Source of the DNA: Formosa sp. Hel1_33_131
Lineage (GTDB): Bacteria; Bacteroidota; Bacteroidia; Flavobacteriales; Flavobacteriaceae
Direction of reading: 5' to 3'
DNA length: 32,000 bases
Assembly: GCF_001735745.1 (NCBI RefSeq)
Contig: NZ_CP017260.1
Span: forward strand, 450,001 to 482,000
A program made the position numbers and the translations under genes. A model generated the notes under the pieces. The model did not search any database and was not told the origin of the DNA. It saw only the letters and a list, made by a program, of their open reading frames with translations. This document shows, one piece after another, positions 6,704-30,714 of the stretch (positions are counted from its first letter, which is position 1; the number at the start of each line of letters is the position of its first letter).

Positions 6704-6882
6704 ATATTAAAATTTGTATATTTATAAAAATTAAACATGAGGAAAAAATATTAAATAATCAATCAAATTTGATTTTTTTTTTTGGAATTTTGTTCACATA
6801 TTTGTACTGTAAAATAACGATAACCATTTCCCCCAAGATTATTCTTATTTTTGATCACTAACTAAAAAAATAAACTACTGAA

Positions 6883-8310
6883 ATGAATAACACTGCGCAA
6901 TCGGTCTGGGAAAACTGTCTAAACTTTATAAAAGACAACATTCAGCCGCAAGCCTACAAAACATGGTTTGAACCTATTGTAGCTGTAAAACTTGACGATC
7001 ATGCGCTCAGTATTCAAGTTCCTAGTAAATTTTTCTACGAATGGTTAGAAGAACACTACGTTAAAATTTTAAAAGTAGCCCTTACTAAAGAGCTCGGTAT
7101 AAATGCCAAATTGGTGTATATCATCAAAATGGAAAATACGTATGGTAATAAACAACCGTTTACGGAGAAAATTCCTAGTTCAAACCGTTCAGCAGTCTAT
7201 TCACAACGCGTTGATATTCCCTTAAAAAATATAAATCCTGAATTAAAAAATCCCTTTGTAATTCCTGGGATTAGAAACGTTAAAATTGAGTCTCAACTAA
7301 ATCCAACATATACTTTTGATAACTTTTTGGAAGGTGACTCAAACCGGTTGGCGCGAAATGCAAGTATTGCAGTGGCTAACAAGCCAGGAGGCACCTCTTT
7401 TAACCCCTTATTGATTTTTGGTGGGGTTGGCTTAGGAAAAACACATTTAGCGCATGCAATAGGGGTTGACATAAAAGATAAATATCCTGAAAAAACAGTG
7501 TTGTATATCTCCGCTGAAAAATTCACCCAACAATATATAGAGTCTGTCAAGAAGAACAATCGAAATGATTTTATTCACTTCTATCAAATTATAGATGTTT
7601 TAATTATTGATGATGTTCAATTCCTTTCTGGAAAATCAGGAACACAAGATGTATTCTTTCATATTTTTAACCATTTACATCAAAACGGGAAACAAGTTAT
7701 TTTAACAAGTGATAAGGCACCTGTGGACATGCAAGATATTGAGCAACGCTTATTATCTCGATTCAAATGGGGATTATCTGCAGAGCTTCAAAATCCTGAT
7801 TTTGAAACGCGTGTATCTATTGTAAAGAACAAACTATACAGAGATGGCGTTGAAATGCCAGAAGAAATTATTGAGTATTTAGCCAAGCACATCACTTCAA
7901 ATGTTCGTGAATTGGAAGGGGCTATCATTTCATTAATTGCACAATCTTCATTTAATAAAAAAGAAATCACACTTTCTTTAGCGAAAGAAATCGTTGAGAA
8001 ATTTGTAAAAAACACCAAGCGAGAAGTGTCTATCGACTACATTCAAAAAGTCGTTTCAGATTATTTCCAAATGGATGTGGACACCCTTCAATCCAAAACA
8101 CGAAAGCGTCATATTGTGCAAGCAAGACAATTGGCCATGTTTTTTGCGAAGAAATTCACCAAAGCTTCTTTAGCCAGTATTGGTTCTCAAATTGGGAAAC
8201 GTGATCACGCTACAGTTCTACACGCTTGTAAAACGGTTAATAACCTCTCTACTACAGATAAGCAGTTTAGAAAATATGTAGAAGACTTGACGAAGAAATT
8301 ATCCATATAA
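6883..8310 (+). CDS. dnaA: Chromosomal replication initiator DnaA
   Basis: 475 aa. Walker A GGVGLGKTHL, Walker B IIDDVQFL, sensor region and a C-terminal DNA-binding domain (KRDHATVLHA). Confidence 0.97.
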   Translation: MNNTAQSVWENCLNFIKDNIQPQAYKTWFEPIVAVKLDDHALSIQVPSKFFYEWLEEHYVKILKVALTKELGINAKLVYIIKMENTYGNKQPFTEKIPSSNRSAVYSQRVDIPLKNINPELKNPFVIPGIRNVKIESQLNPTYTFDNFLEGDSNRLARNASIAVANKPGGTSFNPLLIFGGVGLGKTHLAHAIGVDIKDKYPEKTVLYISAEKFTQQYIESVKKNNRNDFIHFYQIIDVLIIDDVQFLSGKSGTQDVFFHIFNHLHQNGKQVILTSDKAPVDMQDIEQRLLSRFKWGLSAELQNPDFETRVSIVKNKLYRDGVEMPEEIIEYLAKHITSNVRELEGAIISLIAQSSFNKKEITLSLAKEIVEKFVKNTKREVSIDYIQKVVSDYFQMDVDTLQSKTRKRHIVQARQLAMFFAKKFTKASLASIGSQIGKRDHATVLHACKTVNNLSTTDKQFRKYVEDLTKKLSI

Positions 8311-16012: not shown

Positions 16013-16085
16013 CAGCCAATTTCGAGTTAACCTCTGGCGATCATCGCGAATGTTGTTTCGGATAAATACATAAAAAACCATTAAT

Positions 16086-22134: not shown

Positions 22135-22167
22135 TACAAAAGTGTTTCAAAAATTCTATTTTTGTGT

Positions 22168-22989
22168 ATGACTTTCACAAAAACCACCGAACAGGATTCG
22201 CATTACAACCATCTCGAAAAAATGTCTATTAAGGATGTTTTAAACGTGATCAATCAAGAAGATCAGAGCGTTCCTACGGCGGTTGCATCAGCAGTCCCAC
22301 AAATTGAAGCTCTGGTAGCACAGATTGTAAACAACCTGAAAAACGGCGGACGTTTGTTTTATTTGGGTGCTGGAACCAGTGGACGCCTCGGAATTTTGGA
22401 TGCTTCTGAATGTCCTCCCACTTTTGGAGTCCCACATGAAATGGTGATTGGACTGATTGCAGGTGGTGATAGTGCCATCCGTAAAGCGGTTGAATTTGCC
22501 GAAGACGATACCCAACAAGGCTGGAAGGATTTACAAGCATATAGTATCTCCACAAACGATGTGGTGGTTGGTATTGCTGCTTCTGGCACAACGCCCTATG
22601 TGATTGCGGCCTTGAAAGCCTGTCAGCAAGCCAACATCAGCACGGGATGTATGACGTGCAACGAGGGCAGTCCCCTCGCCCAAGTATCGGATTACCCAAT
22701 TGAAGTGGTGGTAGGTCCCGAAGTATTAACGGGCAGCTCACGAATGAAAGCCGGCACGGCACAAAAATTAGTATTGAATATGATCACCACCACCACAATG
22801 ATTCAGCTTGGAAAGGTAAAAGGCAACAAAATGGTGGACATGCAACTGAACAATGATAAACTAGTCGCCCGTGGCGTCAAGATGTTGATGGATCAGTTGA
22901 ACCTCTCAGAAACCGAAGCACAACAGTTGTTAGACACTCATAAAAACGTACGTACCGCATTAAAAAAATATACCAATGGAAACGCCTAG
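22168..22989 (+). CDS. murQ: N-acetylmuramic acid 6-phosphate etherase MurQ
   Basis: SIS domain LGAGTSGRLGILDASECPPTFG and GSSRMKAGTAQK. N-terminal TTE aligns with the conserved MurQ N-terminus, so the ATG near 22168 is preferred. Confidence 0.92.
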   Translation: MTFTKTTEQDSHYNHLEKMSIKDVLNVINQEDQSVPTAVASAVPQIEALVAQIVNNLKNGGRLFYLGAGTSGRLGILDASECPPTFGVPHEMVIGLIAGGDSAIRKAVEFAEDDTQQGWKDLQAYSISTNDVVVGIAASGTTPYVIAALKACQQANISTGCMTCNEGSPLAQVSDYPIEVVVGPEVLTGSSRMKAGTAQKLVLNMITTTTMIQLGKVKGNKMVDMQLNNDKLVARGVKMLMDQLNLSETEAQQLLDTHKNVRTALKKYTNGNA

Positions 22990-23209
22990 AACCAATAAAG
23001 ACCTTTTAGTGGGTGGACTTAAAACAATGGGGGTGACTCTCTTCTTATTATTTTTAGGGCCTTTTATTTTACATGCTGGATTTTCCAATCCCGATAAACC
23101 GCTTTACATCCCTTTGGTGATTGCGGGTGTTTTGACTTGTGGAGCGGCGATTTACTTTGGTTTTAAAGGGATCCGCACAATTATGGACAGCCTTTTTGGG
23201 CGGAAATAA
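22976..23209 (+). CDS. Small two-TM membrane protein (DUF6095-like); its 3' end is the first repeat copy
   Basis: 77 aa. Two hydrophobic helices (GVTLFLLFLGPFILHAGF and LVIAGVLTCGAAIYFGF). Overlaps the murQ end by 14 nt. Confidence 0.6.
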   Translation: METPRTNKDLLVGGLKTMGVTLFLLFLGPFILHAGFSNPDKPLYIPLVIAGVLTCGAAIYFGFKGIRTIMDSLFGRK

Positions 23210-23277
23210 TTTCTTTTTATTATATTTACAACGGACTTAGACCTCAAATCTGATTCTTCATTTTAACCAATTCAACT
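23162..23277 (+). repeat. Repeat module copy C1 (gene 3' end + TTTG/TATATTTA promoter-like pair + invariant core)
   Basis: About 82% identity over ~115 nt to 25685-25796. A 27-nt identical block GACTTAGACCTCAAATCTGATTCTTCA lies at 23234-23260. Confidence 0.85.
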
Positions 23278-23297
23278 TTTTAGTAAGCTATTAAAAT

Positions 23298-23313
23298 ACT
23301 GTATTTATACAGT
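23298..23313. promoter_or_regulatory. 16-nt perfect palindrome ACTGTATttATACAGT (candidate operator)
   Basis: 7+7 perfect inverted repeat with a 2-nt centre, 38 nt downstream of the C1 core. Confidence 0.3.
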
Positions 23314-23449
23314 GGTGTATGGGTATGCGGAGTTTTTAAAAATTGATTGAGCAACGAAGTATACATACTAATGAATTATAAACTTTAGTTTTTAGTGTTA
23401 AAAATGAATGAAATGAAAAAACATTTAAATACGTTTTATAAAACAGAAA

Positions 23450-23488
23450 GTTCAACAATACACGCCAATTTGGGATGTATTGTTGAAC
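23450..23488. repeat. 39-nt near-perfect palindrome / 13-bp hairpin
   Basis: GTTCAACAATACA / TGTATTGTTGAAC arms with a 13-nt loop that is itself partly palindromic (CCAAtTTGG). Confidence 0.8.
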
Positions 23489-23511
23489 GAAACACTAAAT
23501 ATAATGGAAAT

Positions 23512-23549
23512 ATGCACACCTAAAGGTGTGTATATACACTAGTTCTACG
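23512..23549 (+). repeat. Hairpin + TATACacTAG-GTTCTACG boundary element (X0)
   Basis: ATGCACACC taaa GGTGTGTAT forms a 9-bp stem. GTTCTACG (23542-23549) is the exact reverse complement of 24698-24705. Confidence 0.55.
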
Positions 23550-23568
23550 TCATTAAAAAAATCAAAGA

Positions 23569-24666
23569 ATGAAAAAAATATTAAAAACAATAAAATATTC
23601 GATTATAACCATCGTGGTAATAGTTTTAGTATTTATCGCAATTGTTTTTATAAAAAGCCCTGGAGTAGCTGACATTGTTAGAAATAATGATGGAAATATT
23701 CCTAAAAATGCTATTTCTACTATAGTAACAATTCCTGTTGGCGAAATACAGCAGACTATTATTATTAGAGGAGAAGATAATACTAAACCTGTTTTGTTAT
23801 TCTTACATGGAGGTCCGGGGACACCTGAATTTCCATTTATGAAAAATATAGGATTAAATTTAGAGCAAGAATTTGTAGTAGCGTATTGGGAACAACGAGG
23901 AGCGGGAAAATCTTATTTTAAAGATATACCTGTAGAAAGTATGTCATTACCACAAATGATATCTGATGCTGTTGAAGTCTCAGAATATTTACAAATCCAA
24001 TTTAAGCAAAATAAAATTTATTTGATGGGGCATTCTTGGGGCTCTTTTTTAGGTACTATGTTAGCTTATCAGCACCCTAATCATTTTCACTCTTACATTG
24101 GCATTGGGCAAGTTTCTCACCAATATTATGGAGAAAAAATCTCTTTGAATTGGATTAAAAAAATGGCTAAAAACCTTAAAAATAAATCAGATGTTGAGAT
24201 TATAAATACACTAGTATTTCCTGACTCTTTGGCGGACAACCAAACATGGATGGACTATTTGATACCTCAAAGAGATTTTGTCAATAAATATGGTGGTGGT
24301 TTTAGCCACAAAAACTATAATTTGACAAATCTTTATAAAACCATTCTCTTTGATAGTCCTGAATATACTTTTCGAAATAAAATAAATTATTTAGAGGGAG
24401 CTCTATTTTCACCTATGCATCTTTGGGATGATGTTATTCAAACAAATTTAATACAAGAAGTTGATAGTATCTCTATTCCAGTTCATATCATTCAAGGTAT
24501 TCATGACTATCAGACACCTCTGAAACCTGCTAAAGATTTTTTTACTCAATTAAAAGCACCAGAGAAAAATTTTTATCAGTTCGATCATTCAGCTCATTTT
24601 CCATTTATAGACGAACCCAATAAATTTAACAAAATAATAGAAAAAATAGTCTTAGGTGAAAATTGA
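23569..24666 (+). CDS. Membrane-anchored alpha/beta hydrolase (proline iminopeptidase-like, S33-type)
   Basis: N-terminal TM helix, oxyanion HGGPG, nucleophile elbow GHSWGS, and a C-terminal His region (DHSAHFPF). Confidence 0.85.
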   Translation: MKKILKTIKYSIITIVVIVLVFIAIVFIKSPGVADIVRNNDGNIPKNAISTIVTIPVGEIQQTIIIRGEDNTKPVLLFLHGGPGTPEFPFMKNIGLNLEQEFVVAYWEQRGAGKSYFKDIPVESMSLPQMISDAVEVSEYLQIQFKQNKIYLMGHSWGSFLGTMLAYQHPNHFHSYIGIGQVSHQYYGEKISLNWIKKMAKNLKNKSDVEIINTLVFPDSLADNQTWMDYLIPQRDFVNKYGGGFSHKNYNLTNLYKTILFDSPEYTFRNKINYLEGALFSPMHLWDDVIQTNLIQEVDSISIPVHIIQGIHDYQTPLKPAKDFFTQLKAPEKNFYQFDHSAHFPFIDEPNKFNKIIEKIVLGEN

Positions 24667-24697
24667 GAAAAAAGAAATAAAAATGAATTTAAAACGC

Positions 24698-24830
24698 CGT
24701 AGAACAAGGTATAAAAATAATAGCGGTTTAATCACTAAAACAAAAGTAATGAAACATAAAAAAGGTCTGTGTTTAACCGAAAAGTTAGTGCGTGTAAATC
24801 CGCTACTATTCTTATACTAGACCGTTAGCA
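24698..24830 (+). repeat. Imperfect inverted-repeat element X-A (attC-like architecture)
   Basis: CGTAGAAC, then arm GTATAAAAATAATAGCGGTTTA (24709-24730), a 64-nt spacer, arm TAAATCCGCTACTATTCTTATACT (24795-24818), then TAGACC-GTTAGCA (24824-24830). Confidence 0.65.
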
Positions 24831-24861
24831 AACTTATAGAATAAATTAAAAATCACTTCCT

Positions 24862-25548
24862 ATGAAAAATATATTATTATTTATATTGTTACTTTCCTCT
24901 CATATTGTTATTAGTCAGAACCTCATAGAGTTCAGAACAGCATCACTCGTAGATGGTGATTACTCACTCGAGGGAGACGTGTATCTGGAACTGTTTGACG
25001 ATAATTCCCTCAACCTCAGATTTGATACAAATTATTTGACTCAGAGTAACGTATTTGATGTTCATGTGTTTCTAACTAATAATAATGACTATACACAACC
25101 TATTGACACATCTGGGATGTTACTAGTGGAAAACATAGGAACCATTAGTGGCCTAAATTACTCATCAGGCGCTATGACATTTAACTTACCTTCAGGTGTA
25201 GGCATCAATGATTATGACCATATTGTCTTTGTTTGCATCCAATTCGGCCAGTTGCATTGGGGAGATGGAACCTTTGGCTCAACATCTCTAGGTATTATCA
25301 AAAACGATTTTGGAAGCAAACTTTTAGCACACCCTAATCCAACTGATGGTAATTTCTCGATTGACTTGGGAGCTGTTTATGAATCTGTAGAAATTATTCT
25401 TTCTGATATTAATGGCAAGTTAATTCGTTCAGAGTCATTTCGTCAAGAGCAACTTGTTAATATACCATTAAAAGAACCGTCTGGCATATATTTAATAACA
25501 GTTCAAGCAGATAATAGAAAGGCATCAATAAAATTGATAAAAGAATAA
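24862..25548 (+). CDS. Secreted DM13-like domain protein with T9SS C-terminal sorting domain
   Basis: Signal peptide. DM13-like segment (GDVYLELFDDNSLNLRF...FDVHVFL). C-terminal Por secretion tail pattern (HPNPTDGNFSIDL...SGIYLITVQADNRKASIKLIKE). Confidence 0.65.
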   Translation: MKNILLFILLLSSHIVISQNLIEFRTASLVDGDYSLEGDVYLELFDDNSLNLRFDTNYLTQSNVFDVHVFLTNNNDYTQPIDTSGMLLVENIGTISGLNYSSGAMTFNLPSGVGINDYDHIVFVCIQFGQLHWGDGTFGSTSLGIIKNDFGSKLLAHPNPTDGNFSIDLGAVYESVEIILSDINGKLIRSESFRQEQLVNIPLKEPSGIYLITVQADNRKASIKLIKE

Positions 25549-25554
25549 ACGATT

Positions 25555-25607
25555 TGCCAACAATGTATAAGCGGCATTAAAACGACCGCTTATACTAACC
25601 GTCAAAC
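25555..25607 (+). repeat. Inverted-repeat element X-B (short homologue of X-A)
   Basis: TGCCAAC-aat-GTATAAGCGG (25565-25574), 11-nt loop, CCGCTTATAC (25586-25595), then TAACCGTCAAAC. It aligns with X-A apart from internal deletions. Confidence 0.65.
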
Positions 25608-25684
25608 TACGCAAAATCTAAAGGTATTCCATGACTTAAACAAATAGAACTTTATAATTTTAAATCTAGAATACGCAGCAAGAC

Positions 25685-25732
25685 TTTAAAGGCATCCGCA
25701 CCATTAAGTAGAGTCTCTTTGGTCAGAAATAA
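25685..25732 (+). pseudogene. Decayed duplicate of the last 16 codons of the 22976-23209 gene
   Basis: Reads FKGIRTIK*SLFGQK*, compared with FKGIRTIMDSLFGRK* at 23162-23209. There is no upstream ORF. Confidence 0.7.
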
Positions 25733-25796
25733 TTTTTTTATTATCTTTACAATAGACTTAGACCTCAAATCTGATTCTTCAAAAAACCAATTCAAC
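25685..25796 (+). repeat. Repeat module copy C2
   Basis: Collinear with C1. TTTG (25718-25721), TATCTTTA (25742-25749), identical 27-mer at 25755-25781, and AACCAATTCAAC at the end. Confidence 0.85.
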
Positions 25797-25916
25797 CAAA
25801 AGTATTTTAAGATTATTATGCTATTTAGACGCCTCTAAATGGGCTTGTTCGGAAATAATCCTATTTAAGCAGGGTGTGATTTGTAGTCGTTAGCATTCAT
25901 ATTAAAAAATAGAACT

Positions 25917-26486
25917 ATGAAATACAATTCTTCTGAAATGATGTGTTTAGACATTTATCTTTCTTCTTTGTCAGATAAAGAACATGACAAAATAAAACAT
26001 CAAATTAAATCGTCTAAAGCTAAAATATCCCCGTTATCAAGTTGGGATATCTATAGGCCAAATTATTTTAAAACACTTGACAAGCAGAGAAAAAAAAGAG
26101 ATCTTAAGGTTGTAAATTCATTCTTTAAAAAAGAAAAATGGAGTAATGATTTTCAGAGTGTTTTTAAAAATCAAGAGTTTGAAGCACTCGTAATTACCGA
26201 TTTAAACCAAAGAATTATTTGGGTTAATGAAGGATTTACTAAAATGACAGGCTATTCAAAAGATTTTGCCATAAACAAAACACCCCATTTTTTACAGGGA
26301 GAAAACACCTGCTCATCTGTTAAGAAAAAAATTAGAACTAAATTAAAAAAATCACATCCATTTAAGGAGGTGATCACAAACTACAGAAAAGATAATTCAG
26401 TCTATAATTGCGAAGTGAGAATTATCCCTTTGTATTGTAATGAAAAGGTAACTCACTTTTTAGCTTTAGAAAAAGAAGTCATCTAA
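25917..26486 (+). CDS. Stand-alone PAS domain protein, LOV-like but lacking the adduct-forming Cys
   Basis: Residues ~90-189 align with LOV domains (VITD...GYS...NKTPHFLQG...NYRKD). The N-terminal ~90 aa are unassigned. Confidence 0.7.
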   Translation: MKYNSSEMMCLDIYLSSLSDKEHDKIKHQIKSSKAKISPLSSWDIYRPNYFKTLDKQRKKRDLKVVNSFFKKEKWSNDFQSVFKNQEFEALVITDLNQRIIWVNEGFTKMTGYSKDFAINKTPHFLQGENTCSSVKKKIRTKLKKSHPFKEVITNYRKDNSVYNCEVRIIPLYCNEKVTHFLALEKEVI

Positions 26487-26584
26487 ATAGATTAAATGAA
26501 ATTCTCCAAGCTGCGTACTCTATGGATTAAACCAATAAACCCTCGCTAGCAAAAGAACAAAAACTAACGAATAACAATTAAAAA

Positions 26585-26809
26585 ATGATAGTTTTAGCAA
26601 TGATGGAGACTTGGGAATTAATTATACTCTTATTTATTTTAGCGCTCGCTGTGTTACCAACTGTCTTAGCACTTATTGATATTCAAAAAAGTGAATTTCA
26701 GGGAAACACGAAACTAATTTGGCTGTTGGTGGTGATATTTTTGAGCTTTTTTGGAGCTATTTTGTATTTTTTAATTGGAAAGGAACAGAAAACAACTACA
26801 AACAACTAG
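26585..26809 (+). CDS. Small membrane protein with PLD-nuclease N-terminal (PLDc_N) domain
   Basis: 74 aa, two TM helices. KLIWLLVVIFLSFFGAILYFLIG is the PLDc_N signature. Confidence 0.65.
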   Translation: MIVLAMMETWELIILLFILALAVLPTVLALIDIQKSEFQGNTKLIWLLVVIFLSFFGAILYFLIGKEQKTTTNN

Positions 26810-28242: not shown

Positions 28243-29115
28243 TTAAAATAGGGTTCTTAAGCCGATATTAAATGTTTGACCCAATCCGGTGTTATTTCCT
28301 CTCACAAAATTGGTGTATAAAAACTCAATATTCAACACCTTTGTGAGTTGATATTTTGTTCCAAAACCAAGCACTGAATAGTCTTGTGCTAAACTTTCTC
28401 CAAGATCGAGCCTTTGGGAATGTTGCGCCATCACTAAAACAGTAAATTTTTGACTTGGAAAATAACTAAAAAAGACACTTGGTGTTAAAACCAAACTCGT
28501 ATTTGCAAAGCTCTCTTTCTTATCCCCAAAATTATATTCTGTATTTATTTCAGCAAATAATTGTAGTTCATCTCCTGCAAAGGTGTAATCATACAAAAAT
28601 CGGTTTTGGAGGGTATATCCTTTTTGATCTAAATAAACGTTGTTTTCTGATTCCTCTTTTACCAATGGAATATGGAAGGCTGTCAACAATGTTAAATTAC
28701 TAATTTTATTAAAGGGTTTGAATTTTATGGCAGGTGCAAATGAGGTAAATCCAGAACGCGTCCCATTGGTTGAATTATTCTCAAATTTAAAAACATCAAA
28801 GGTATCTAGGCCATTGACCGCATTTGAACGTATTTCTAATAAAAGTCCAACGTCTAAATTGTTGTTTTTAGAGATGCCAGTAAAAATATCTATGGTGGAT
28901 GTAAAATAAGTTTCTCTTGGCTGTGAACCAGGTTTTTCAGAGTTTTTTGTTTGGGTATAAATATTATTAAACCATTTAATATCCCATTGCCCTTTATTCA
29001 ATAGTTTTGAGGGGGTATAAGTGATGATGTTACTCTGTTCATTATCGTTATCTTCTTGTGAAGCGATTGAGAATGTCAGCATTAAAAATAGTACTGTGGT
29101 GATTTTAAGTTTCAT
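28243..29115 (-). CDS. Outer-membrane beta-barrel protein, family unassigned
   Basis: Signal peptide, alternating amphipathic strands, and a C-terminal OMP signature (GLRTLF). Confidence 0.5.
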   Translation of the reverse strand: MKLKITTVLFLMLTFSIASQEDNDNEQSNIITYTPSKLLNKGQWDIKWFNNIYTQTKNSEKPGSQPRETYFTSTIDIFTGISKNNNLDVGLLLEIRSNAVNGLDTFDVFKFENNSTNGTRSGFTSFAPAIKFKPFNKISNLTLLTAFHIPLVKEESENNVYLDQKGYTLQNRFLYDYTFAGDELQLFAEINTEYNFGDKKESFANTSLVLTPSVFFSYFPSQKFTVLVMAQHSQRLDLGESLAQDYSVLGFGTKYQLTKVLNIEFLYTNFVRGNNTGLGQTFNIGLRTLF

Positions 29116-29145
29116 AAGTAGGGTGTTTAAGGCGTGTGTTTAATG

Positions 29146-29862
29146 TTAGGGTTGACTGTTTAAAGTCCAGTTGTACGTGAAGTACCGTAATTTAAAATTT
29201 GGGGGTATTTTCTCTTTTCTGTAGAGGTTTAAAAAATCAATTTCAGATTGACCTTTTATTACAAAATCTTCTTTATACCATTTTAGGATCTCGGAGGCTT
29301 CGACACGCTTTTTTTTGATATTGACTTTTATAAATGAATCGCCATTAATGGCCAATTCGGTTTGTTCTTTTAACTGTTTGTCTAAGGTTTCTGGGAAATA
29401 CGCTTTAGGGATTAAAGGCGGACATCCTATGGCACCACAAACCAATACAAAGTGCAAGCGCGGATCCTTAAATTGAGCTCTTAACAGGGTGTTTTCAATG
29501 GAGTTTAACGTGACTTTTTGACCTGCAATCTCATAGGTAATTTTATCAAAAAAACCACCTTTATCTAAAGGAGAATTCATAGGGTAATTGGTTATGATTC
29601 CTTTGATAACCGCTAAATTATAGGCATTAATCCAAAATGCTTTATAGTGATCCTCTTCTTTAGAAATAGAAAGCGTTGCTGCTATATTGAAGAGTTCATC
29701 TAACGCGGATGGGTTGGAATGGATTTTTTCATACGCTACTGTTCCGTTCTGAACGTAGGTTTTTAAAAACTGATCGGTTTTTGTGAAAAATGAAGAGACA
29801 TCTTGTGCATATAAAGAATAGGCTAAGAGTGTCAGTAGAAAAATAAGGGGATATTTTTTCAT
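29146..29862 (-). CDS. DUF547 domain protein (secreted)
   Basis: Signal peptide. AFWINAYNLAVIKGI and the HFVLVCGAIGCPPL motifs are typical of DUF547. Confidence 0.8.
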   Translation of the reverse strand: MKKYPLIFLLTLLAYSLYAQDVSSFFTKTDQFLKTYVQNGTVAYEKIHSNPSALDELFNIAATLSISKEEDHYKAFWINAYNLAVIKGIITNYPMNSPLDKGGFFDKITYEIAGQKVTLNSIENTLLRAQFKDPRLHFVLVCGAIGCPPLIPKAYFPETLDKQLKEQTELAINGDSFIKVNIKKKRVEASEILKWYKEDFVIKGQSEIDFLNLYRKEKIPPNFKLRYFTYNWTLNSQP

Positions 29863-30040
29863 GATTTTATTGAGATTGGAGGATTATATAATATCAAAAT
29901 TTTCAGTTAAAGTATAAAATTAATTCGAGAAATCAAACGATATTCATAACATTCAGTCTGGTACTCGTTTGGGAGTCCCCTATAAATTAGTATCAAATAG
30001 GGTGCCATATTGACTCAACCTAAGCTTAATATAATTTTAA

Positions 30041-30128
30041 TTTTTTGGTCGTATTCATTTTTTGACTACTTTTATGGCGGAATAAGACCTCAAATCTGAT
30101 TCTTCAATAACCTATATAAACTAGTAAG
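30041..30128 (+). repeat. Repeat module copy C3 (most diverged)
   Basis: TTTG (30044-30047), TACTTTTA (30067-30074), exact 22-mer at 30085-30106, then AACC...AAC-TAGTAAG as in C1. Confidence 0.7.
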
Positions 30129-30244
30129 TGTTTTATTAGATTGTTCGCGCCTAAGAGGCCTGTAAATAGAGAGGGGCTTTAATAGATTTTGTTTGAAGCA
30201 ATTGAAACAGGTTTAAACAAATAAACGATGGACAATGTTAAACA

Positions 30245-30676
30245 ATGAATAAAAAAGAAGCTTTAAAGATTTTAAACGATAATGCTGCTACAGAAAATGA
30301 CAGCTATCTTTACTTTATACATGAAGAAGGATGCTTTGACGAATTTTCTTTTTGGGAATTTTACAATGCTATAAAAGTATTAGGACATGAATTTAAAGAT
30401 GAAAAAAAACTGTCAAGAGAATTAATGAAAAAAATAATTAAGAGCTATGAATGGTATTTAATTTTAATTGGATTTCATTTTGACCCAAATGACAAAAGTA
30501 GAATCGATCATTTACCAGAAAATTATTCTCAATACAGTTTGAGGTTGAGAAATGCAATAACTAGTTTTATAGATGGAAACCCTATCACGAACGAATTAGA
30601 GGAAGTTCTTAATAATGATTTAAAAAATAAAACGAAAGTTTTTAAAAAAGTTGATTATAATAAATCAAATATGTAA
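30245..30676 (+). CDS. Hypothetical cytoplasmic all-alpha protein (immunity-protein-like, family not recognised)
   Basis: 143 aa with no signal peptide or TM helix. AT-rich codon usage like the islands. No motif I can name. Confidence 0.45.
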   Translation: MNKKEALKILNDNAATENDSYLYFIHEEGCFDEFSFWEFYNAIKVLGHEFKDEKKLSRELMKKIIKSYEWYLILIGFHFDPNDKSRIDHLPENYSQYSLRLRNAITSFIDGNPITNELEEVLNNDLKNKTKVFKKVDYNKSNM

Positions 30677-30714
30677 ATTTATAAAAATGTGAATTTCAGT
30701 ACATACGAAATCAC

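Follow-up and report, generated by a model that had tools for sequence, protein, structure and literature searches.

Why does a bacterial chromosome repeat one promoter-like sequence, always in the same orientation, ahead of a hydrolase gene, a PAS-domain gene and a reading frame with no Pfam match? The question is raised by a 32,000-nt stretch of chromosomal DNA from Formosa sp. Hel1_33_131, a marine member of the Flavobacteriaceae (positions 450,001 to 482,000 of NZ_CP017260.1, hereafter the window), in which three copies of a 22-nt repeat, C1, C2 and C3, stand in a setting of housekeeping genes that include dnaA, ligA, icd and murQ. We think that the repeats are probably modules of about 85 bp derived from the promoter and 5′-untranslated region (5′UTR) of a tyrosine recombinase gene, that C1 is a platform that has lost the recombinase, that C2 and C3 retain only the promoter and 5′UTR, and that the 22-mer is a stem-loop of the 5′UTR.

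The 22-mer, AGACCTCAAATCTGATTCTTCA, is found by exact search at 23239, 25760 and 30085, on the + strand each time, and no further copy exists in the window at 3 or fewer mismatches (0 expected by chance). A first-pass annotation of this DNA had placed a Bacteroidetes-type promoter at each copy, made of a TAnnTTTA box 10 nt 5′ of AGACC and a TTTG 19 to 22 nt above the box, the latter formed at C1 by Leu-Phe-Gly codons of the gene upstream, and had seen no TAnnTTTG ahead of the cargo reading frames. These descriptions hold. The pattern TANNTTTA-N10-AGACC has exactly three matches, at 23221, 25742 and 30067, where 0.03 are expected by chance; TTTG lies at 23195-98, 25718-21 and 30044-47, with spacers of 22, 20 and 19 nt to the box; and the upstream gene is a 77-aa DUF6095 gene. 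TAnnTTTG is absent from the + strand in 22165-26735 and in 29010-30714, including the regions upstream of the island reading frames, and housekeeping genes of the same window have it 5-75 nt upstream (e.g., at 6846, 13748, 15244, 16597, 18937 and 22157). A scan for E. coli-type promoters and terminators, which is inapplicable to this phylum, gave no enrichment. Because the sigma-A -7 box of Flavobacterium psychrophilum occupies -12 to -5 (PMC9723704), the predicted transcription starts fall at 23233, 25754 and 30079. Relative to these, the repeat runs from about -57 to at least +28 and is larger than first described; the stretch common to C1 and C2 is about 115 nt long, since C2 has a degenerate DUF6095 3′-end in front of it.

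The module recurs widely. Exact copies of the core are present in eight Formosa-like genome assemblies, several per genome, and scanning metagenomes with a relaxed pattern, then searching with a profile, yielded a family of 157 copies on 131 contigs of marine Flavobacteriaceae, 102 of them non-redundant, with the core consensus AGAYCYCAAATCTRATTCTTCA. (The loci and contigs fetched for comparison with the window carry L-numbers.) Among copies selected solely by their core in eight genomes, the TAnnTTTA box stands at the fixed distance in 22 of 22, with A as its final base in all, and 17 of 22 have a TTG 14-24 nt 5′ of the box, where the background is 30%. The box is likewise at the fixed distance in 15 of the 16 copies found independently of the search pattern, and TAnnTTT is at the fixed position in 151/152 family copies, its last base A in 151/151 and never the consensus G. 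Between the box and the predicted +1 lie 4 variable bases, after which 28 positions reach 90% conservation or more (99 non-redundant copies). Conservation therefore starts at the predicted start, which is why we regard the repeat as the shared 5′ leader that the first-pass annotation had suggested. In comparison with Bacteroidetes sigma-A promoters (-33 TTTG and -7 TAnnTTTG), the module has both boxes, the 19- to 22-nt spacer and a conserved, presumably transcribed sequence that begins where the F. psychrophilum map puts +1, but differs in the last base of its -7 box. Its leaders, with a median of 221 nt from module to start codon, are also far longer than the median 5′UTR of 24 nt in F. psychrophilum.

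The orientation of neighboring genes bears on what the module serves. The gene 3′ of it is co-oriented in 85 cases and convergent in 7, compared with 56 versus 33 for the gene 5′ of it, and this contrast (85/92 against 56/89) favors a promoter and leader, portable as had been claimed, over a free-standing RNA gene. The latter would be a family of trans-acting small RNA (sRNA) genes, each a promoter and an RNA of about 100 nt with the 22-mer as its 5′ seed and a U-run at its end, which like tRNA genes would attract insertions. We consider this quite unlikely. Subfamily A, the C1 type, and it alone, does have a hairpin and U-run at about +95, similarity fades at +94 to +110 in many paralogous comparisons, conservation is highest at the 5′-end, and there are several copies per genome. 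Yet co-orientation is 92% downstream versus 63% upstream, the module is homologous to an mRNA 5′UTR (see below), and conservation reaches +305 in the C1-type copies. The hairpin ahead of the U-run is weak and GU-rich and did not register as a terminator in the scan; subfamily B, C2 and C3 included, has no common terminator; no covariation is seen; and the island genes are without promoter boxes themselves. The likeness between many copies ends at the U-run near +95 of the C1-type leader, and the segment 23261-23411 may be an attenuator or small RNA. A known RNA family (e.g., Flavo-1) was rejected, since no Rfam model reached its gathering threshold in the window or the 14 loci searched, and around C1 even E≤10 gave nothing meaningful.

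The origin of the module is indicated by a gene in one of the fetched loci. A motif scan of their 882 reading frames found one tyrosine recombinase, in L058, with Phage_integrase and Phage_int_SAM_4 domains. With a score of 231.6 the protein passes the cut-off of 220 set for NCBIfam model NF040815, "site-specific tyrosine recombinase/integron integrase", and is equally close to archaeal XerA and to VchIntIA. Orthologs at 71%, 63%, 62% and 54% identity are found in a conserved gene order, with the recombinase gene after lpdA, and those at 56% and 52% lie at other loci. The promoter and 5′UTR of the recombinase gene align with the module as tttttTAnTAnATTTG-N6-9-AGnnCCCAAATCTGTTCT..ATG (alignment A4). 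The loop is constant between recombinase 5′UTR and modules, and two stem pairs, compared by eye, are changed on both sides (C-G to U-A/U-G and A-U to U-A); the recombinase promoters, unlike the modules, have a -7 box with the consensus G. The alignments thus indicate that the module is homologous to the promoter and 5′UTR of a chromosomal Xer/IntI-like tyrosine recombinase gene, and that it descends from, or shares ancestry with, that sequence.

The 3′-end of the recombinase gene is equally distinctive. The recombinase genes of L058, L132, L133, L135, L136 and L137 end in ATATACA(C/A)TAG↓TT (the arrow marks the junction), after which the DNA is unrelated; the exception is L131, whose recombinase ends ..CAATAGAT. 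The hairpin of this 3′ element covaries between genera. Three independent metagenome assemblies (L131, L132 and L133) break 0.1-1.1 kb after the recombinase gene, as would be expected if repeats or strain-variable cassettes come next. SIR2-like, Schlafen/AlbA, metallophosphatase with ORC/Cdc6-like ATPase, and Dam-type genes, all co-oriented, come after the recombinase gene in L136, a complete 3.4-Mb genome (9927-17152), and this group looks like a defense island.

C1 has kept this end of the gene as well as its beginning. The 3′ part of the C1 leader, 23412-23544, is 88% identical to L058:3289-3420, the 3′-end of the full recombinase reading frame. The stop codon of the L058 recombinase is the TAG of CACTAG↓TT, frame 0 of the C1 copy still translates to FYKTESSTIHANLGCIVERN, and the attI-like junction of C1 falls at G23542↓T23543. 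Such 3′-end copies follow a full recombinase reading frame or a module within 400 nt in 24/24 judged cases, with one contig-edge copy unjudged, on a map that leaves out reverse-strand matches to the palindromic hairpin of the element. Because this element is the 3′-end of the recombinase gene and the module is homologous to its promoter and 5′UTR, C1-type modules would be internally deleted recombinase genes, and C1 looks like one that acts as a promoter and attI-like platform for cassettes. The first-pass annotation had offered a Pc/attI-like platform for all three copies; that idea fits C1 well, with its recombinase-type promoter, 3′-end, G↓TT junction, cassette and attC-like site, and is not supported at C2 and C3. 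An attC with pairing ends was rejected for the 3′ part of the subfamily A leader, whose minimum-energy fold prefers local hairpins and which is the recombinase 3′-end. The hairpin loop CCAATTTGGGATG in this element (23450-23488) is complementary to the 5′UTR loop at 23242-23250 (AUCCCAAAU in many copies), so that a 9-bp inverted repeat encloses the recombinase gene and each deleted copy too. That the 5′ core pairs with complements downstream was rejected as a structure, the complementarity being present without covariation.

The same annotation had also raised the possibility that the 22-mer is a recombination site, and this does not survive, as the recurrent junction lies about 300 nt downstream, at 23542↓23543. 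It is highly improbable that the 22-mer is itself an att site, with direct repeats of the core flanking integrated units and the crossover inside the core. In several orthologous pairs homology ends at +22/+23, one of them being L075 and L121 with an upstream identity of 98.8%; direct repeats flank groups of genes; and a duplicated DUF6095 3′-end stands before C2 and before a copy in L015. However, the best-resolved break at +23 is the end of a long diverged import tract, +22 is merely where paralogous copies cease to match, and the junction at which several cargos alternate is ..TAG↓TT, 300 nt downstream. Moreover, the core aligns with a 5′UTR, and no recombinase gene is adjacent to the copies. 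As to the duplicated ends, a degenerate duplicate of the last ~50 nt of the DUF6095 gene precedes the L015 copy (L015:4229-4260) with inserted genes between, as at C2, and tandem duplication or a Campbell-type insertion are possible origins.

The 22-mer is instead, on the alignments, a 5′UTR stem-loop and not a crossover site. The sole helix in the family consensus is the 5′ stem-loop UUAGA[YCYCAAA]UCURA, which is essentially invariant. It lies in the leader RGACUUAGAYCYCAAAUCURAUUCUUCA, 4 nt from the predicted 5′-end of the transcript, and has a 5-bp stem and a constant 7-nt loop; in C1 these are TTAGA at 23237-41, the loop CCTCAAA and TCTGA at 23249-53. A conservation and covariance analysis of the leader had been suggested by the first-pass annotation. 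Its first part bore fruit, with columns 1-28 at least 90% conserved, and its second did not: single-sequence folds of the leader are mutually inconsistent, and further helices do not covary above shuffles. Descent alone does not explain such extreme conservation of the 22-mer, from which we infer a shared regulatory role. Most likely it is a regulatory element, either an operator or a site that a protein or RNA binds, and would couple expression of the recombinase and the cassettes; being so conserved, it may also anchor the homologous recombination that replaces downstream tracts.

That the 22-mer is specifically the DNA target of a trans-acting factor, either the operator of an SOS-type repressor or a target of RNA-guided dCas12f-sigmaE, seems to us scarcely credible. 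The imperfect dyad TTAGA-N7-TCTRA directly 3′ of the promoter would suit such a role, and Flavobacteriia are known to have RNA-guided transcription, its targets being conserved and 14-16 nt long (PMC13472631). The 22-mer, however, matches neither of the Bacteroidetes SOS boxes, GGA-N5-TCC and CTAA-N5-TTAG (PMC8565304), and its most conserved part is the loop YCYCAAA, with an asymmetric TTCTTCA tail also conserved, unlike a dyad operator. RNA-guided transcription needs no promoter motif, yet here the sigma-A-type box is conserved, and none of the loci showed a dCas12f or a guide RNA.

The modules stand at the left border of variable DNA. They lie at orthologous positions across genomes (after DUF6095, after recA-acyltransferase, after mutS2-DUF393 and others) and the genes that follow them differ. 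At the DUF6095 locus the window has a hydrolase gene, L006 has helix-turn-helix, Dcm methylase and restriction enzyme genes, L017 and L127 have other genes, and L013 runs almost directly into dgk. Homology between such loci breaks at two kinds of position. The first is the 3′ edge of the core, +22/+23, and is explained by homologous recombination. The second lies 200-300 nt 3′ of the core, always after ...ATATAC(AC)TAGTT. At least four alternative cargos follow ..TAGTT at one locus, and L059 and L116 are 100% identical up to this junction and then differ. Comparison of loci thus points to a fixed G↓TT insertion point after recombinase-end copies in at least eight loci, 23542↓23543 among them. 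In addition, one cassette start, TTATGGGCAATTAAAAC, is shared by L132, where it follows an attC-like site, and L135, where it follows the recombinase stop codon. The cargo of the family is varied and of the accessory kind; it includes EcoRI-type and HsdM methylases, HaeIII endonuclease, SieB, DUF6364 (which we take to be an antitoxin), Ogt-like and thioredoxin-like proteins and substrates of the type IX secretion system (T9SS), as well as restriction-modification, toxin-antitoxin, Cas9 and many proteins with no Pfam match. A Cas9 gene starts 292 nt downstream of the module copy L050:2618(-).

The cassette-like genes are separated by structured sites. In the window, as in L006 and L017, the imperfect palindrome (24703-24826) separates two cassette genes that are unrelated, with cassette 1 of the window ending at G24824↓TT and an unrelated 228-aa reading frame after the same site in L006. 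It belongs to a diverged repeat family with about 30 convincing relatives, found between co-oriented reading frames, that begin nnnnAAC-AAn-G..., end ...-nAnC-CGTT and have arms that pair. The covariation score of the family is 0.278 against 0.103 in shuffles; none of 500 shuffles reaches it, slid controls stay at or below 0.092, and 17/25 pairs of the palindrome are changed on both sides. The L box has 48 bottom-strand G.T pairs against 2 on the top strand. A mismatch is conserved at two positions, A.C when read on the top strand and G.T on the bottom, and there are no clear extrahelical bases. In single-strand folds the bottom strand does better (z = -1.99 versus -0.62 for the top). The sites form a short class of 52-59 nt and a long class of about 123 nt, have no U-runs, and occur in arrays of three at a spacing of about 1 kb after a module in L120, of four in L069 and of two in L105. 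Their arms are kept in a genome whose recombinase is only 52% identical. Published attC sites have AAC/GTT triplets, R and L boxes, an unpaired spacer and bottom-strand G:T enrichment, are alike within chromosomal arrays, and measure 57-70 bp when mobile and 133 bp in VCR2 (PMC5027507); in their sequences and predicted folds, the members of the present family match these features.

Taken together, these elements suggest how the system would work. The intact recombinase locus has, in order, the promoter, the recombinase gene, the end ATATACA(C/A)TAG↓TT and co-oriented variable genes, the latter separated by attC-like palindromes that start with AAC and end with GTT. C1 would be a version of the gene with an internal deletion: the promoter and 5′UTR, about 150 nt, and the final 130 nt including the junction, followed by two cassette-like genes and one attC-like site. 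It would transcribe the promoterless cassettes, which it probably once captured, and in integron terms would be a recombinase-less Pc with an attI-like platform. C2 would drive the PAS gene and C3 the 143-aa reading frame; these two copies are, as far as alignment can tell, promoter/5′UTR-only modules fused to other leaders. The end of the C2 leader, ..GATTTGTAGTCGTT↓AGCATTC (25886-25899), resembles the right end of the attC-like sites, ..TAGACCGTT↓AGCAAAC. In L006 the body of the 143-aa reading frame behind C3 (30255-30643) is absent, the start and last codons being kept with an overlap of about 6 nt at the junction; the loss is a simple deletion, not a cassette exchange.

Several observations count against this reading. 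The window encodes no recombinase by Pfam and further searches, and 923 kb of module-bearing loci hold only one. That protein scores below the integron-integrase cut-offs (209 against 265 for TIGR02249 and 153 against 435 for NF011946) and lacks the IntI-specific insertion: in alignment, 21 aa replace the 64 aa at residues 184-247 of VchIntIA, which we assume include the IntI-specific domain. The -7 box of the module ends in A and not in the consensus G. The middle of the C1 leader (23261-23411) has no similarity to the recombinase reading frame above that of shuffles, and was rejected as a remnant of it; three further helices of the C1-type leaders do not covary above shuffles. C2 and C3 have neither a recombinase 3′-end nor a recognizable attI-like end, and a G↓TT junction ahead of the PAS gene was not established by alignment with L075. 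The window has one clear attC-like site only. A simple attC pattern scan is noisy, with 122 matches against about 70 in shuffles, and a generic AAC..GTT palindrome scan gave 978 against 754; such scans being too noisy, we relied instead on the homologous family and its covariation. Finally, L075 and L013 are 96% identical for 2.8 kb, 82% identical across a tract that includes dgk, and then 96% identical again. This identity profile plainly points to import by homologous recombination with its left crossover in the conserved module.

The import tract, with its left end at the core, favors an ordinary duplicated promoter and leader, with no site-specific recombination, in which islands turn over by homologous recombination and the palindromes are terminators or structured spacers. 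The window without a recombinase and breakpoints at the edges of several blocks are also in its favor, and the replacement of flexible islands in aquatic bacteria is reportedly driven by homologous recombination. We nevertheless regard this alternative as unlikely. It leaves unaccounted for a junction that in eight or more loci falls exactly at G↓TT behind the stop codon of the recombinase or behind copies of that end, and an identical cassette start behind two different types of site. Nor would it be expected that palindromes with AAC/GTT ends covary so as to preserve pairing without having U-runs, that their G.T bias is to the bottom (antisense) strand, unlike that of a terminator, or that their arms are kept in a genome whose recombinase has only 52% identity.

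Extending the argument from this locus, we put forward more tentatively the possibility that marine Flavobacteriaceae, including abundant Formosa-like bloom bacteria, have an undescribed integron-type capture system run by a Xer-type recombinase that lacks the IntI domain. Such a system would comprise the recombinase, the attI-like end ATATACACTAG↓TT, co-oriented cassettes and attC-like hairpins that fold best as bottom strand. The recombinase promoter and 5′UTR, along with the attI-like end, would have spread as mini-platforms without a recombinase to six or more chromosomal loci, and these would capture and express cassettes in trans, with the invariant 5′UTR stem-loop as a common switch for the recombinase and every platform. 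Since the recombinase is without the IntI-specific domain, we do not file the system as a canonical integron; we describe one that, from its sequences, appears to work like an integron.

The likeness to integrons has several parts. As in sedentary chromosomal integrons, a tyrosine recombinase gene lies by a fixed G↓TT insertion point. The accessory genes are co-oriented and mostly promoterless, with a predicted upstream promoter reading into the cassettes, and chromosomal integrons of the "inverted integrase" type likewise have intI and cassettes in the same direction. The sites are AAC...GTT imperfect palindromes with R-like and L-like boxes, a spacer that stays unpaired and a center that varies, their arms alike within and between arrays as in chromosomal integrons. 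Their two size classes are near the 57-70 bp of mobile attC and the 133 bp of VCR2, and they share the bottom-strand G.T enrichment (PMC5027507). There are also differences: the recombinase has no IntI-specific insertion and is as near to XerA as to IntI, the sites have two conserved A.C/G.T mismatches and spacers of 3 and 4-6 nt, the attI-like end either coincides in part with the recombinase gene's 3′-end or directly adjoins it, and promoter and attI-like end have been multiplied as recombinase-less copies at many loci. Integrons are, furthermore, almost unreported in Bacteroidetes, where the IntegronFinder 2.0 survey lists integrases without cassettes and one complete integron, in Salinibacter (PMC9024848). 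Our literature searches returned nothing on this module, nor on sRNA or island repeats of flavobacteria, nor on Flavobacteriaceae integrons.

Other known systems resemble parts of this arrangement. Clusters of attC sites lacking integrases (CALINs), which are thought to be degraded integrons, are likewise cassette arrays with no adjacent integrase, and L120, L069 and L105 have 2-4 attC-like sites within a few kilobases and no recombinase. IntegronFinder 2 by default takes two or more attC sites without an integrase as a CALIN, a number that these loci reach, whereas the window has one clear site. CALINs differ in that the arrays here are headed by a recombinase remnant with promoter, 5′UTR and 3′ junction. 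Internal deletion like that in MITEs, the miniature transposable elements with inverted repeats, gives non-autonomous derivatives of mobile elements, and the Correia elements of Neisseria are promoter-carrying repeats. In such elements, as here, an internally deleted copy keeps both ends of its parent, occurs in many copies and gives its neighbors a promoter (predicted in our case), but the modules have no terminal inverted repeats or target-site duplication, and their position is orthologous across genomes whereas the downstream DNA changes. In the Xer/dif system and the pdif modules of Acinetobacter plasmids, recombination is at 28-bp XerC/XerD sites. A Xer-type tyrosine recombinase and small accessory modules bounded by recombination sites are common to these and the present system, the latter being set apart by structured palindromes of 52-125 nt with AAC/GTT ends and by co-oriented arrays behind one promoter.

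If the wider proposal is right, streamlined and dominant marine flavobacteria would have a mechanism for keeping small flexible gene pools at many fixed sites. These pools of restriction-modification, toxin-antitoxin, Cas9, surface and redox proteins would be expressed by a single conserved promoter and leader. Integron-like capture would also reach a phylum in which surveys find almost none (PMC9024848). Because the recombinase is without the domain to which the reading of attC structure is ascribed, how attC recognition evolved would become directly testable. In practical terms, the promoter/leader module could be of use in genetic tools for Flavobacteriia, the signature of core, ATATACACTAGTT end and AAC...GTT palindromes could locate hypervariable islets, and the system would explain contig breaks in metagenome assemblies.

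Table. Features of the three modules and the genes around them, in window coordinates.
Feature	Position	Strand	Details
DUF6095 gene, 77 aa	22976-23209	+	Pfam PF19589, E=2.4e-31; last codons ..DSLFGRK and stop give the C1 -33 TTTG
C1 promoter (predicted)	23195-23228	+	-33 TTTG 23195-98; 22-nt spacer; -7 box TATATTTA 23221-28
C1 predicted start and conserved 5′ leader	23233-23260	+	start 23233; core 23239-60
Middle of C1 (subfamily A) leader	23261-23411	+	AACCAATTCAAC; ACTGT-loop-ACAGT hairpin; GU-rich hairpin; U-run at ~+95 (alignment A3)
Recombinase 3′-end copy	23412-23544	+	last ~130 nt of gene; 11-bp hairpin 23450-88; ends ATATACACTAG↓TT
Cassette-like gene 1, alpha/beta hydrolase	23569-24666	+	Pfam; replaced in L006, L017, L127
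attC-like imperfect palindrome, 124 nt	24703-24826	+	AAC-AAG-GTATAAAAATAATAGCGG ... CCGCTACTATTCTTATAC-TAGAC-CG↓TT
Cassette-like gene 2, T9SS C-terminal sorting domain	24862-25548	+	Pfam Por_Secre_tail
Degenerate DUF6095 3′-end duplicate	25685-25731	+	82% identical to 23162-23216; directly 5′ of C2
C2 module	25718-25781	+	TTTG 25718-21; box TATCTTTA 25742-49; predicted start 25754; core 25760-81
PAS-domain gene	25917-26486	+	Pfam; 157 nt 3′ of C2 core
C3 module	30044-30106	+	TTTG 30044-47; box TACTTTTA 30067-74; predicted start 30079; core 30085-106
143-aa reading frame	30245-30676	+	no Pfam match; 160 nt 3′ of C3 core

The rest of the window bears on the setting of these features. It contains neither tRNA nor tmRNA genes, and an integration target of either kind was rejected on that ground. 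An L19-Flavobacteria ribosomal-protein leader lies at 16028-16055, upstream of rplS (Rfam RF03130, 40.5 bits). An AT-rich stretch with overlapping palindromes at 6740-6880, directly 5′ of dnaA (6883-8310), suggests that the replication origin probably adjoins the window.

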